From assembly GCF_041248615.1 (NCBI RefSeq), contig NZ_CP158426.1: a stretch of 64,000 nucleotides of DNA. One strand, written 5' to 3'. The stretch comes from Escherichia coli. GTDB taxonomy: Bacteria > Pseudomonadota > Gammaproteobacteria > Enterobacterales > Enterobacteriaceae. A program made the position numbers. This document shows, piece after piece, positions 3,483-12,400 of this stretch (position 1 is its first letter; every line of letters begins with the position of its first letter).

Positions 3483-6400
3483 TAAAAACCGGAAATAACG
3501 CCAGAAATGGTGGAAAAAATAGCCTAAATAGGCCGATTCGATGTGTTTGCGGGAAAAAAATCGGCCCAGATCCGCGAAATTTTAATCAGCGAGTCAGCTT
3601 GGGAAGAAATGACCTGCTTATTCGCACCTTCCCTAAATCTTTCCACCCACCCCCTTAAATTTTTCAATAAATGCGCTAATTTTTTGAAAAACAGTCTGTT
3701 TTTTCGTTTTATATTGCGGATTTAAAGGACTGAGTCTGGGCAGTGTCTCGTTTAATTCCGTGCCATTTTCGGTGGCGTATTCGCGTTTTAAAGATGTGCG
3801 AATATAGCGTTTCGCCGCCTCTTCATTGAGATTTTCTTCTTTGATCAAGGCTTCTGCTTCACGTTGCTGTTCGCGTTGAGCAAACGTAAAGAATGCGTCA
3901 ATGATGCTGGCTTTGTCCGGTAAATCATCCAGGTTCGTTTGCTGAATAAAATCGACCACCAGGCCCTCTTTAGCACGGTTCCCCAGGCTTGAACGAATTA
4001 AGCGTTTGACCTCTTCGATCATTTCGCTCTTACCTTTGTTTTGTCTGTTGTGCTCGAAAATCAGACCAAGGATATAATCCAGGTTTATTTCCTGAGATTT
4101 CAGCAAATCGACCTCAAAAACTACGTCATCCCAGTCAGTGGTTGATTTCTCTTTTTTCTCAGCTTCTTTCTCACGGCGCTGCCAGTCGCGAATATCGTTA
4201 TAGGCAGAACGATAATCCTGAATCTTGCGATCAGCAGGGAGACGAATTGTTTGCAATTCAGCGAGCTTTTCATCATCCACATAATGTTCTGCTTTGAATT
4301 TTTCTACTGCAACAGGATCGCTAAGATCGATTTGTTGCAGGGCTTTCAGCGTGGCAAATTCATCATAGTTTTGCAGGATGTTCTCGGCACGCAGGTATTC
4401 ACCAAACAGTTTAACGAAGTCTTTCTTCTCTTTTTCACTTTCAATACTGGCAGGGTCAGGGAACCGTTGTTCCAGTTCTGCAACTACTGCCATAAAGCCG
4501 CGCTTAGCTTCACCAGTAGCAGCATCAGTAAAGCCTTCCATATACTCTGCATAACTCTTTTCTAACACTACATTTTTGGTGTTTTTGTCACCAAACAGCG
4601 TTATGGCATCGATGGTTGAGCGTTCCAGATCGCGGAAAGTGACGATATTACCGAAGGTTTTAGTTGCATCATAAATACGGTTGGTGCGGGAAAATGCCTG
4701 CATCAGGCCGTGAAAACGCAAGTTTTTATCGACGAATAGCGTGTTCAATGTTGGAGCATCGAAACCGGTTAAAAACATCCCCACGACAATTAACAGATCG
4801 ATATCCTGATTTTTAACCCGTTGGGCTAAATCACGATAGTAGTTCTGAAAACCCTTACTGTCGGTGCTGAAGTTAGTTTTAAAATAGCTGTTATACTCAC
4901 GAATTGCAGCGTCAAGAAACTCTTTAGCACTGCTGTCCATTGCGCTGGTATCAAAAGTTTCATCGGATATTTCACCAATCGCATTTTGTTCTTCATTAGC
5001 GGCAAAGGAGAAGATTGTCGCAACACGCAGTGGTTTACAGGTAGTAGATTTATTAGCGGCTTCCTCTTGTAACCGTTTAAACGTCGCGTAATAGGCTTTC
5101 GCGGCATCCACGCTGCTTACTGCCAGCATGGCATTAAAACCTTTGGAGCCAGGGAAAGTACGGTGGGTTTTCTGGCGGAAATTATTCAGAATATATTGCG
5201 TGATTTCCTGAATACGCATGGGATGAAGAAACGCCTGCTGATTTTCAGCCGCACTTAGTTTTTTCTCGTCAGTTTCTGTCTCTAAAGACTTAAACTGTGG
5301 TCGCACATCGTTGTAGTCCACCTTGAATTTGAGCACTTTTTCGTCACGAATCGCATCGGTAATTACATACGAATGCAATTCACGACCAAATACGCTGGCG
5401 GTTGTTTCTGAGCCTAAGGCGTTTTCCGGGAAAATAGGGGTGCCGGTAAAACCAAACTGATAATAGCGTTTGAATTTCTTCTTCAGGTTTTTCTGCGCTT
5501 CTCCAAACTGGCTGCGGTGGCATTCATCAAATATAAACACCACTTGCTGATTATATACAGGCAGGTCGCTTTCTGCTTTCATCAGGTTATTGAGTTTCTG
5601 AATAGTAGTGACGATAATTTTGTTATCGTCCTTATCCAGATTTCGTTTAAGGCCTGCGGTATTTTCCGAGCCGTTGACGCTGTCTGGCGAAAAACGCTGA
5701 TATTCCTTCATGGTCTGGTAATCGAGGTCTTTCCTGTCGACCACAAAGAAGACTTTATCAATAAAGTCCAGCTCTGTTGCCAGACGCGCGGCTTTAAAGC
5801 TGGTGAGGGTTTTACCAGAACCGGTAGTGTGCCAGATATACCCACCGCTTTCCGGTTTTGACCAGTTCTTCGCTGTAAAGGAACTCTTAATTTTCCACAG
5901 AATGCGCTCGGTGGCGGCAATCTGGTACGGTCGCATCACCAGTAGCGTCTGACTACTGTCAAAAACGCTGTAGTTCACCAGAACATTCAGCAGAGTATGT
6001 TTCTGGAAAAAGGTAGCGGTAAAGTCTTTGAGGTCTTTAATCAGCGTGTTGTCTGATTTCGCCCAGTTCATGGTGAAGTCAAAACTGTTTTTATCGCGCT
6101 TTGTTGTGTTGGCAAAATAACGGGTATCGGTGCCGTTAGAAATGACAAACAGTTGCAGATACTTAAACAGAGAATTTTCGCTGTTAAAACTCTCTTTGCT
6201 GTAACGGTGTATCTGGTTGAACGCTTCACGAATCGCCACGCCGCGCTTTTTCAGTTCGATTTGCACCAGCGGCAAGCCATTAACCAGGATCGTGACGTCA
6301 TAACGGTTAGCGTGAGAGCCTGCCTGTTCAAACTGCTGGATAATCTGCACTTTATTGCGCATGAGATTCTTTTTATCTATCAAATAGATGTTCTCAAGAC

Positions 6401-9400: not shown

Positions 9401-12400
9401 TAATGTCATCAGTAATTACGCTGTCATCCAGTTTCGCATAACAGATACTGTCATCACCGGCTTCAATATAACTGGAAAAATTTTCGCTGATAAAACGGTA
9501 GAAAAGTGCGCCCAGAACGTATTGCTTAAAATCCCATCCGTCAACAGAACCTCTGACATCATTGGCAATTTGCCATATCTGGCGGTGCAGTTCTGCTCGT
9601 TGTTGAATACTTGTCATTTTTAATCCATTTTCCTGGTTTGGACCTGAATCATTGAGGGCAATTCTACAGCAATCTTGTGGTTCAGGCAGCCCCGGAGTAA
9701 GTCGGTGTACATTGTGAGATACCTGGGGTATTCACGACAAGGAGGAGGAACGGAATATTGCCTTTCCTTTGCAGTGCACCAGGTGCATTCTAAATAATTT
9801 CAGACAGATATTATCTCCGTGAATCCCCCGCCACCTTTCCGGTGCGCGGGGTTTTGTCTTTTTTCACCGGGAATACATGTATGAATCCGTCTGATGCCAT
9901 TGAGGCAATTGAAAAACCACTTTCTTCCCTGCCTTACTCACTTTCCCGTCACATCCTGGAACATCTGCGCAAACTCACCAGCCACGAACCCGTGATTGGC
10001 ATTATGGGGAAAAGCGGGGCCGGTAAATCCTCACTCTGTAATGCACTGTTTCAGGGGGAGGTCACCCCGGTCAGTGATGTTCACGCCGGCACCCGGGAAG
10101 CGCAGCGCTTCCGTCTGAGTGGCCATGGTCACAGCATGGTTATCACTGACCTGCCCGGGGTGGGCGAGAGCCGGGACAGGGATGCAGAGTATGAAGCCCT
10201 GTACCGTGACATTCTGCCTGAACTTGACCTGGTACTGTGGCTGATTAAAGCCGATGACCGTGCCCTGTCTGTGGATGAGTATTTCTGGCGACACATCCTG
10301 CACCGGGGACATCAGCGGGTACTGTTTGTGGTGACGCAGGCCGATAAAACGGAGCCCTGCCATGAATGGGATATGGCCGGTATTCAGCCTTCTCCCGCAC
10401 AGGCACAGAACATTCGCGAAAAAACGGAGGCGGTATTCCGTCTGTTCCGGCCCGTACATCCGGTTGTGGCCGTATCGGCCCGCACCGGCTGGGAACTGGA
10501 TACGCTGGTCAGTGCGCTCATGACAGCACTTCCCGACCATGCCGCCAGTCCCCTGATGACCCGCCTGCAGGACGAGCTGTGCACGGAATCTGTCCGGGGG
10601 CAGGCCCGTGAACAGTTTACCGGTGCGGTGGACCGGATATTTGACACGGCGGAGAGCGTCTGTGTTGCCTCTGTGGCTCGTACGGTTCTGCGTGCCGTCC
10701 GTGACACGGTGGTCTCTGTTGCCCGCGCTGTATGGAACTGGATTTTCTTCTGAACACTCTGCCAGGGGAAATGCCTGATTACATTGCGTTAACCAACTGA
10801 AAACATGACACAAACACCTCATACCCACCTCTTTCTCTTGCGTGACTGCCTTGCTGTTAATAGAATAAAACGATCGATAAAACAGGTATCGATCGTTGTA
10901 ATCGATCGTTTATGGTGGTTAATGGTCTGCGAAAAGGCAGCTGAATCTCTTCATCATGCAGAACGGAATTGCACACAACGGACTGATACTTCTCTGGCGG
11001 ATGAGAGAGGGGAAGCATTTATGTCCGGGAAAAACCACTTTATCTGACCATGCTGTTTTGTACCTGCCGGTATCCACATTTGTGGGTACCGGCTTTTTTA
11101 TTCACCCTCTGTAAGGAAAAGCTGATGAAACGACATCTGAACACCAGCTACAGGCTGGTATGGAATCACATTACGGGCACCCTGGTGGTGGCTTCCGAAC
11201 TGGCCCGCTCACGGGGAAAACGCGCCGGTGTGGCGGTTGCGCTGTCTCTTGCTGCTGTCACGCCAGTCCCGGCACTGGCTGCTGACACGGTTGTAGAGGC
11301 GGGAGAAACCGTGAACGGCGGAACACTGACAAATCATGACAACCAGATTGTCTTCGGTACGACCAACGGAATGACCATCAGTACCGGGCTGGAGTATGGG
11401 ACGGATAACGAGGCCAATACCGGCGGACAATGGATACAAAATGGCGGTATCGCCAACAACACTACTGTCACCGGTGGTGGTCTTCAGAGAGTGAATGCCG
11501 GAGGAAGCGTTTCAGACACGGTTATCAGTGCCGGAGGCGGACAGAGCCTTCAGGGGCAGGCAGTGAACACCACTCTGAACGGCGGTGAGCAGTGGGTACA
11601 TGAAGGCGGGATTGCAACGGGTACCGTCATTAATGAGAAGGGCTGGCAGGCCGTCAAATCCGGCGCAATGGCAACCGACACGGTTGTGAATACCGGCGCG
11701 GAAGGGGGACCGGATGCAGAAAATGGTGATACCGGGCAGTTTGTTCGCGGAAATGCCGTACGTACCACTATCAATGAAAATGGTCGTCAGATTGTGGCTG
11801 CTGAAGGAACAGCAAATACCACTGTGGTTTATGCCGGCGGCGACCAGACTGTACATGGTCACGCACTGGATACTACGCTGAATGGGGGGTACCAGTATGT
11901 GCACAACGGCGGTACGGCGTCTGACACTGTTGTAAACAGTGACGGCTGGCAGATTATCAAGGAAGGTGGTCTGGCGGATTTCACCACCGTTAACCAGAAA
12001 GGCAAACTGCAGGTGAACGCCGGTGGTACCGCCACACATGTCACCCTGAAACAGGGTGGAGCACTGGTCACCAGTACTGCGGCAACGGTTCTTGGCAGCA
12101 ACCGTCTGGGCAATTTCACGGTGGAAAACGGTAAGGCTGACGGCGTTGTTCTGGAGTCCGGCGGTCGCCTGGATGTACTGGAAGGCCATTCAGCGCAGAA
12201 AACACGGGTGGATGACGGCGGAACCCTGGCAGTGTCTGCCGGTGGTAAGGCAACAGGTGTCACCATGACATCCGGTGGTGCCCTGATTGCAGACAGTGGT
12301 GCCACTGTTGAGGGGACCAATGCCAGCGGTAAGTTCAGTATTGATGGCATATCCGGTCAGGCCAGCGGCCTGCTGCTGGAAAATGGCGGCAGCTTTACGG

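Follow-up and report, generated by a model that had tools for sequence, protein, structure and literature searches.

We analysed a 64,000-nucleotide stretch of an Escherichia coli chromosome (contig NZ_CP158426.1; hereafter the window), which is 100 per cent identical to positions 800001-864000 of the chromosome of E. coli NRZ14408 (NZ_LT599825.1). It carries a type I restriction-modification (R-M) cluster of three genes, hsdM, hsdS and hsdR (Table 1). The specificity gene hsdS contains a 12-bp tandem repeat whose unit encodes the residues TAEL, and natural loci that are otherwise identical differ by exactly one 12-bp unit.

The hsd cluster and its family

All three open reading frames (ORFs) are full length. 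By ORF coordinates, hsdM and hsdS overlap by 4 bp, and the order hsdM-hsdS, then a short gap, then hsdR is that of the EcoR124 family. RefSeq annotates type I subunits M and S and an HsdR-family deoxyribonuclease, and NCBIfam and PADLOC models concur with the type I hsd assignments. In the family, hsdR has a promoter of its own; in the hsdS-hsdR gap here, a promoter-like site (TTAACA-18-TATTTT, 6843-6814) is only a weak match to the consensus. Given the 121-bp gap and the 4-bp overlap, there is no PrrC-like insertion: no prrC-like gene lies in the gap and none is annotated nearby. An EcoprrI-type (prr) locus was rejected on the same ground, the lack of prrC between hsdS and hsdR.

In a search of all PDB chains, HsdR aligned end to end with EcoR124I HsdR (2W00; residues 1-1038 on 1-1038, 2263 bits), with nineteen differences within the first 1010 residues (~98 per cent identity). 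The nuclease residues and the GSGKT and DECH motifs fall in stretches free of differences. HsdM differs from EcoR124 HsdM (7BST_D) at six of 518 residues (~99 per cent identity, 1148 bits), and motif I (DPAAGSGS) and NPPY are unchanged. The model TIGR00348 scored 762 bits on HsdR (cut-off 285) and TIGR00497 scored 650 bits on HsdM (cut-off 243).

Type I families are delimited by sequence, complementation and antibody cross-reactivity (PMC3874165). The HsdM of EcoKI (type IA) matched HsdM here with 64 bits (E = 9e-17), the EcoKI S subunit was absent among the PDB matches of HsdS, and the type I specificity subunit model PRK09737 reached 27 bits on HsdS (cut-off 662). The immigration control region is a mark of type IA systems; the island that carries the locus here has its end at a tRNA-Ile gene beside mug-rpoD. 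Membership of type IA or IB was rejected, since the EcoKI subunits match weakly or not at all. The initial annotation had described a chromosomal, type IC-like system with an HsdR of 1038 amino acids close to EcoR124I and no PrrC-like gene, and these points held. The cluster is indeed chromosomal, in a record of 5.34 Mb (such a location is common for type IC loci, though), and HsdS aligned best with EcoR124 HsdS, not with type IA or IB subunits.

HsdS has the layout of the EcoR124 family: an N-terminal conserved segment (86 per cent identical to EcoR124I), a first target-recognition domain (TRD1), a central helix, a second target-recognition domain (TRD2) and a C-terminal conserved helix, with both ends of the chain inside D2. 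Since both TRDs differ from those of EcoR124I (Table 1), the specificity of this HsdS is predicted to be new. Judged from its sequence, the cluster is a bona fide, intact type IC system whose pair of target-recognition domains is new. We found no characterised enzyme with these TRDs in a comparison that lay outside REBASE and in which EcoDXXI and EcoprrI were not aligned.

At an identity of at least 90 per cent, TRD1 is present in 88 of 117 full-length HsdS proteins from the database, paired with several different TRD2s, and TRD2 in 29, nineteen of them with other TRD1s. By the same measure, seventy-eight of these relatives share TRD1 only, nineteen TRD2 only and ten both. Such combinations indicate that TRDs are reshuffled as modules among HsdS relatives. 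The same TRD pair was found in only one other complete genome, that of strain ET210.

Some HsdS alleles of 411-421 amino acids carry the N-terminal conserved motif YLEKLLDGVEVEW again after the central helix (TUM18530, L026:19494-20729; TUM18780, L027:19494-20741; MB46, L005:1045-2310). Their second conserved helix starts like the first (PDNPEKSLAIQSEIVRILDKF...), and these alleles resemble products of fusion or recombination between two half-S genes.

Table 1. Positions in the window of the hsd genes, the parts of hsdS and the adjoining insertion sequence.
Feature	Position	Strand	Description
hsdM	8061-9617	minus	type I N6-methyladenine (m6A) methyltransferase subunit, 518 amino acids
hsdS	6871-8064	minus	specificity subunit, 397 amino acids; best PDB match EcoR124 HsdS 7BST_A, E = 1.7e-96
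TRD1	7651-7998	minus	residues 23-138; 14 per cent identical to EcoR124I TRD1
Central conserved region, long D1 helix	7468-7650	minus	residues 139-199; 58 of 61 identical to EcoR124I (95 per cent)
12-bp tandem repeat, spacer-length module	7539-7566	minus	perfect period of 12, 2.3 copies, unit TAAGCTCAGCGG (Tandem Repeats Finder)
TRD2	7054-7467	minus	residues 200-337; 31 per cent identical to EcoR124I TRD2
C-terminal conserved region, D2 helix pairing with D1	6874-7053	minus	residues 338-397; 90 per cent identical to EcoR124I
hsdS-hsdR intergenic region	6750-6870	minus	121 bp, no ORF
hsdR	3633-6749	minus	translocase/endonuclease subunit, 1038 amino acids
IS5-like ISKpn26	2437-3632	plus	right inverted repeat stops one base short of the hsdR stop codon (CTA, 3633-3635)

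The TAEL repeat

On the coding strand the repeat reads CTT(ACCGCTGAGCTT)x2 and encodes L-TAEL-TAEL. Codons 7552-7563 and 7540-7551 each read ACC GCT GAG CTT, so that the two TAEL units are residues 168-175 and the codon-aligned repeat occupies 7540-7563. The initial annotation was right about two 12-bp copies encoding TAEL, and its coordinates (7541-7564) were one base off register. In 64 kb, chance alone would yield about 1.5e-5 such perfect tracts; the tract is also a conserved feature of the family. A check of its position placed it inside the central conserved helix between the two TRDs. An AlphaFold model of HsdS (mean predicted local distance difference test score, pLDDT, of 86) has a continuous helix at residues 147-189 (block pLDDT 82-92), which carries the TAEL pair midway along, and a partner helix at 344-386.

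EcoR124I has two TAEL units and recognises GAA N6 RTCG; EcoR124II has three and recognises GAA N7 RTCG (PMC3874165, a 2013 review in Nucleic Acids Research; PMC7383803). Unequal crossing-over at the 12-bp repeat has been given as the cause of the change between them; EcoDXXI and EcoprrI each carry three units, and two to three units are reported for natural type IC enzymes (PMC3874165). Engineered repeat numbers in EcoR124I/EcoDXXI hybrids shift spacer and specificity as predicted (PMC3874165; PMC7383803). The statement in the initial annotation that one repeat more or less alters the spacer in the EcoR124 family agrees with this literature (PMC3874165).

A second, imperfect 12-bp tandem lies in hsdR (4151-4173; 1.9 copies, 90 per cent matches, unit CTTCTTTCTCAG). 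It encodes part of EKEAEKKEK; the protein is identical there in EcoR124I, and we saw no variation.

Repeat number differs between sister loci

The first pair sets the locus here against that of ET210, which has the same TRD pair. Across window positions 2291-11448 (9158 bp) there are zero substitutions between the two strains, and the flanking island DNA is 1-5 per cent divergent. Within 3400-9900, the differences are one exact extra 12-bp unit and four single-base deletions, which fall in runs of A7, C5, T6 and T6. ET210 HsdS thus has three TAEL units and 401 amino acids.

A second pair, with another HsdS allele, shows the same kind of change. TUM18530 (two units) and TUM18780 (three units) differ across 40 kb by one single-nucleotide polymorphism and one 12-bp unit, and hsdM, hsdS and hsdR are intact in both strains. 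Their chromosomes measure 4,894,739 bp (TUM18530) and 4,894,769 bp (TUM18780), and strain 13P477T carries a two-unit HsdS identical to that of TUM18530. One-unit forms also occur (P0049, 374 amino acids, versus P0020, 378 amino acids). Because two units are commoner and presumably ancestral in both pairs, the changes in ET210 and TUM18780 both look like gains. No literature was found on NRZ14408 or the TUM strains that treats this hsd locus.

Unit numbers across complete E. coli genomes

We counted repeat units in 5,426 complete E. coli genomes, using queries composed of n units between two 45-nt flanks and E-value limits that pass only near-full-length, ungapped matches. Counting by megablast identity bands (queries of 1-4 units) was rejected, as arrays at least two units apart were joined and scored at 100 per cent coverage and identity. 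The central region was matched by 1,344 records in 1,254 genomes. Two units were present in 620 records (339 chromosomal and 291 plasmid places), three in 410 (129 chromosomal, 284 plasmid), four in fifteen (12 and 3) and one in seven (6 and 1). Two-unit arrays make up ~59 per cent of the classified records and three-unit arrays ~39 per cent; ~290 of the 1,344 were left unclassified for divergent flanks, imperfect units or longer arrays. Two units are relatively commoner on chromosomes (χ2 = 50, P ~1e-12), a test that is indicative only because the records are phylogenetically non-independent.

Chromosomal type IC loci are common, not unusual. In those inspected that have intact DNA upstream of hsdM, the cluster either adjoins a gene of CP4-like islands annotated as ‘GTPase family protein’ or follows a DUF4942 gene. 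An exception is the ST540 chromosome, where the cluster adjoins phd/doc, as do plasmid copies, which lie next to phd/doc of P1-like elements. The hsd cluster is also found in two P1-like phage genomes.

Long arrays and gene integrity

Arrays of five and eight units were found on plasmid C of strain S30 (L003:1546-1605) and on the chromosome of strain 33-6 (L004:1546-1641), respectively. Both exceed the two to three units reported for natural type IC enzymes (PMC3874165). In each, hsdS is split by IS1 and the hsdM beside it is truncated; strain 58-3, a sister of 33-6, has an equal alignment span over the array. At seven of nine inspected four-unit loci (L006, L008, L011-L013, L015 and L016), hsdS is truncated or split by IS1, IS3 or ISEc45. 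Of the other two, one has a frameshifted hsdM and one (pDAM_1) appears intact. By comparison, all nine sampled loci with two or three units (L017-L025) are intact, as is the window.

Taken together, nine of the eleven loci with 4-8 units have an hsdS truncated or disrupted by an insertion sequence (IS) and one more has a frameshifted hsdM, versus none of ten with two or three units (Fisher’s exact test, P = 2e-4 raw and 0.005 when collapsed to lineages, from samples that are small, non-random and phylogenetically non-independent). This difference suggests selection on array length for as long as the enzyme works, which would hold it at two or three units, and room for the array to grow after the gene has died. 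When a protein collection was searched with 70 residues of the central region carrying six TAEL units, the matches were short fragments of at most two units, and the search was uninformative.

The genomic island

The hsd cluster lies within a ~48-kb island, bounded by an integrase gene at position 770950 of the record and a tRNA-Ile gene at 819124-819199. Closely related islands occupy three different tRNA genes: the one here is at tRNA-Ile near mug-rpoD, that of ET210 at tRNA-Ser near ghrA and that of the TUM strains at tRNA-Ser near infA. Their order is lactate-utilisation genes or a dynamin/patatin module first, followed by hsd, the GTPase gene and a yee-like module (window 1-19199). As NRZ14408 and ET210 share an identical hsd block between flanks that are 1-5 per cent divergent, the sequences suggest a recent exchange of the hsd segment between their islands.

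Homology to hsd loci that lack ISKpn26 begins exactly at 3633. The 4-mers that flank the element do not match (CTTG to its left and CTAA to its right), which points to its boundary with hsdR being the junction of an IS-mediated rearrangement, not a simple insertion. The same junction recurs in many genomes with the genes intact. To the left of ISKpn26 is a truncated pseudogene of a gntP-family permease (1842-2255).

The same island carries, at 5.6 kb from hsdM, a gene annotated as ‘antirestriction protein’ (15207-15692, plus strand), which had no NCBIfam or PADLOC match. After this gene come radC-like, yeeU/cbtA toxin-antitoxin and DUF4942 genes. Elsewhere in the window, RefSeq annotates a fimbrial usher gene cut by an IS3-family element (45792-49405), a flavin mononucleotide (FMN) riboswitch (43031-43179) and the type I toxin gene ibsE (39491-39550).

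Interpretation

The locus is very probably an intact type IC R-M system of the EcoR124 family, on a tRNA-linked, CP4-like island, in which the number of TAEL units sets the spacer of the target and one-unit changes shift specificity. On this model, HsdM2-HsdS would methylate a bipartite target, and HsdR2M2S would cut unmodified DNA at a distance from its recognition site, after ATP-driven translocation. The half-sites would be set by a TRD pair unlike that of EcoR124I and presumably unlike those of EcoDXXI and EcoprrI, and the distance between them by the length of the central D1 helix. Two TAEL units would give the ‘short-spacer’ form, equivalent to EcoR124I (N6). We infer that the direct repeats can gain or lose one 12-bp unit, with the frame kept, through slipped-strand mispairing or through unequal crossing-over between them. 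As one unit is about one helical turn, the required spacer would shift by 1 bp, here from N6 to N7, and yield a new specificity.

The initial annotation had called the array a slippage-prone specificity switch. The sister loci that differ by one 12-bp unit lend the switch direct support; ‘slippage-prone’ applies only in a relative sense, and with just two units the rate of switching is probably low. Around hsd we found a single hsdS, no spare cassette, no adjacent recombinase and no long tract (2.3 units), that is, none of the structural hallmarks of a phase-variable contingency locus.

A number of observations weigh against a working switch in this allele. An array of two units is poorly suited to slippage when set against classical contingency tracts. 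In a collection of 15 billion proteins, this exact HsdS occurs in its two-unit form only (forty-two contigs, with close variants on 170 more), and synthetic versions with 0, 1, 3, 4 or 5 units had no exact match; the HsdS of ET210 is itself not in that collection. Three units do not occur in any of the 107 database proteins that share TRD1 or TRD2; each of these has two, or a pair altered by point mutation. Variants of this allele may be rare or short-lived, or unit number may be inherited along with the TRDs. Last, hsdR and hsdM of ET210 are annotated as frameshifted and, if the frameshifts are real, the three-unit copy sits in a dead locus.

Together with the disrupted genes of the 4-8-unit arrays, the uniform two units of the 107 relatives and the ET210 frameshifts could mean that a unit change inactivates the enzyme rather than switching it, with this TRD pair working at two units only and other lengths persisting in dead or dispensable systems. 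We consider this unlikely. The three-unit enzymes EcoR124II, EcoDXXI and EcoprrI are fully active, and the engineered hybrids behave as predicted (PMC3874165). Three units were found in 410 census records, five of five sampled being intact, and TUM18780 combines three units with intact hsdM, hsdS and hsdR. Because the ET210 deletions lie in homopolymer runs, as expected of nanopore errors, sequencing error is the likelier cause, and the frameshifts are probably not real.

It is more doubtful still that the locus is silent or non-functional in NRZ14408, whether switched off, disturbed by the IS5-like element or neutralised by the antirestriction protein, leaving the repeat without a phenotype there. 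ISKpn26 does sit directly against the hsdR stop codon with no matching target-site duplication, and the antirestriction gene is close by on the same island. The element, however, lies past the downstream end of hsdR, at a remove from both promoter regions, and its junction with hsd is conserved in many genomes whose genes are intact. The ORFs are full length, HsdR and HsdM are 98-99 per cent identical to the crystallised, active enzyme and their catalytic motifs are unchanged. That the differences in copy number are artefacts of assembly or sequencing and the array is static seems hardly credible: ET210 does show the homopolymer errors typical of long-read-only assemblies, but the differences are exact, in-frame 12-bp units in two independent pairs and not homopolymer slips. 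Both the two- and the three-unit state occur in hundreds of independent assemblies, and the EcoR124I/EcoR124II pair was established experimentally (PMC3874165).

Beyond an intact system whose TAEL number sets the spacer, we raise, tentatively and with considerable doubt, the idea that the array is a slow contingency locus in natural E. coli. Flips between two and three units within clones would then give subpopulations different methylomes and different barriers to phages and plasmids. Functional enzymes would be held at two or three units, and arrays would drift to 4-8 once an IS hits hsdS; such drift after the loss of hsdS would imply an intrinsic tendency to expand. A further and speculative step is that the change in methylome alters gene expression, as a phasevarion in E. 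coli.

EcoR124I and EcoR124II have made the mechanism of the repeat textbook knowledge, and the locus adds a new, uncharacterised specificity allele to a family that is already very well known. What is new is the natural one-unit change between near-identical loci and the distribution of unit numbers in the population. The spacer ‘dial’ of EcoR124I/II, known from one plasmid and from engineered constructs, appears to turn in wild chromosomal loci on clonal timescales. Both of its settings are common in E. coli, and longer arrays are associated with inactivated genes. The pairs NRZ14408/ET210 and TUM18530/TUM18780 offer natural material for the effect of one turn of the HsdS coiled coil on target spacing. 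For annotation, the locus is a predicted type I barrier in a multidrug-resistant clinical strain, which bears on transformation, plasmid uptake and phage susceptibility.

Comparison with known systems

EcoR124I, from plasmid R124, is the type IC prototype (PDB 2W00 and 7BST). It shares with the locus here the order hsdM-hsdS, short gap and hsdR, the 1038-residue HsdR, HsdS conserved regions that are 86-95 per cent identical, and a TAEL-TAEL pair at the equivalent place in the central helix. Its TRDs, in contrast, are only 14 and 31 per cent identical, so that the half-sites here are predicted not to be GAA and RTCG. It is also carried on a conjugative plasmid, whereas our locus is on a chromosomal, tRNA-linked island beside a GTPase/Ag43/CbtA module. 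EcoR124II (R124/3) is to EcoR124I what ET210 is to the locus here, the identical protein plus one TAEL unit; EcoR124II itself has three units rather than two and different TRDs.

EcoprrI (the prr locus of E. coli CT196) and EcoDXXI, compared by description rather than by alignment, are likewise type IC systems with TAEL repeats in the central region, though with three units each (PMC3874165). EcoprrI is chromosomal like the locus here and, unlike it, has the gene for the PrrC anticodon nuclease inside the operon.

In phase-variable type I systems (for example SpnIV/tvr; Atack et al. 2019), as is predicted here, a repeat change within hsdS alters the specificity of the methyltransferase. Those systems rely on long simple-sequence-repeat tracts or invertible hsdS cassettes, whereas changes at the TAEL array stay in frame and would alter the spacing of the target rather than turn the gene on or off.

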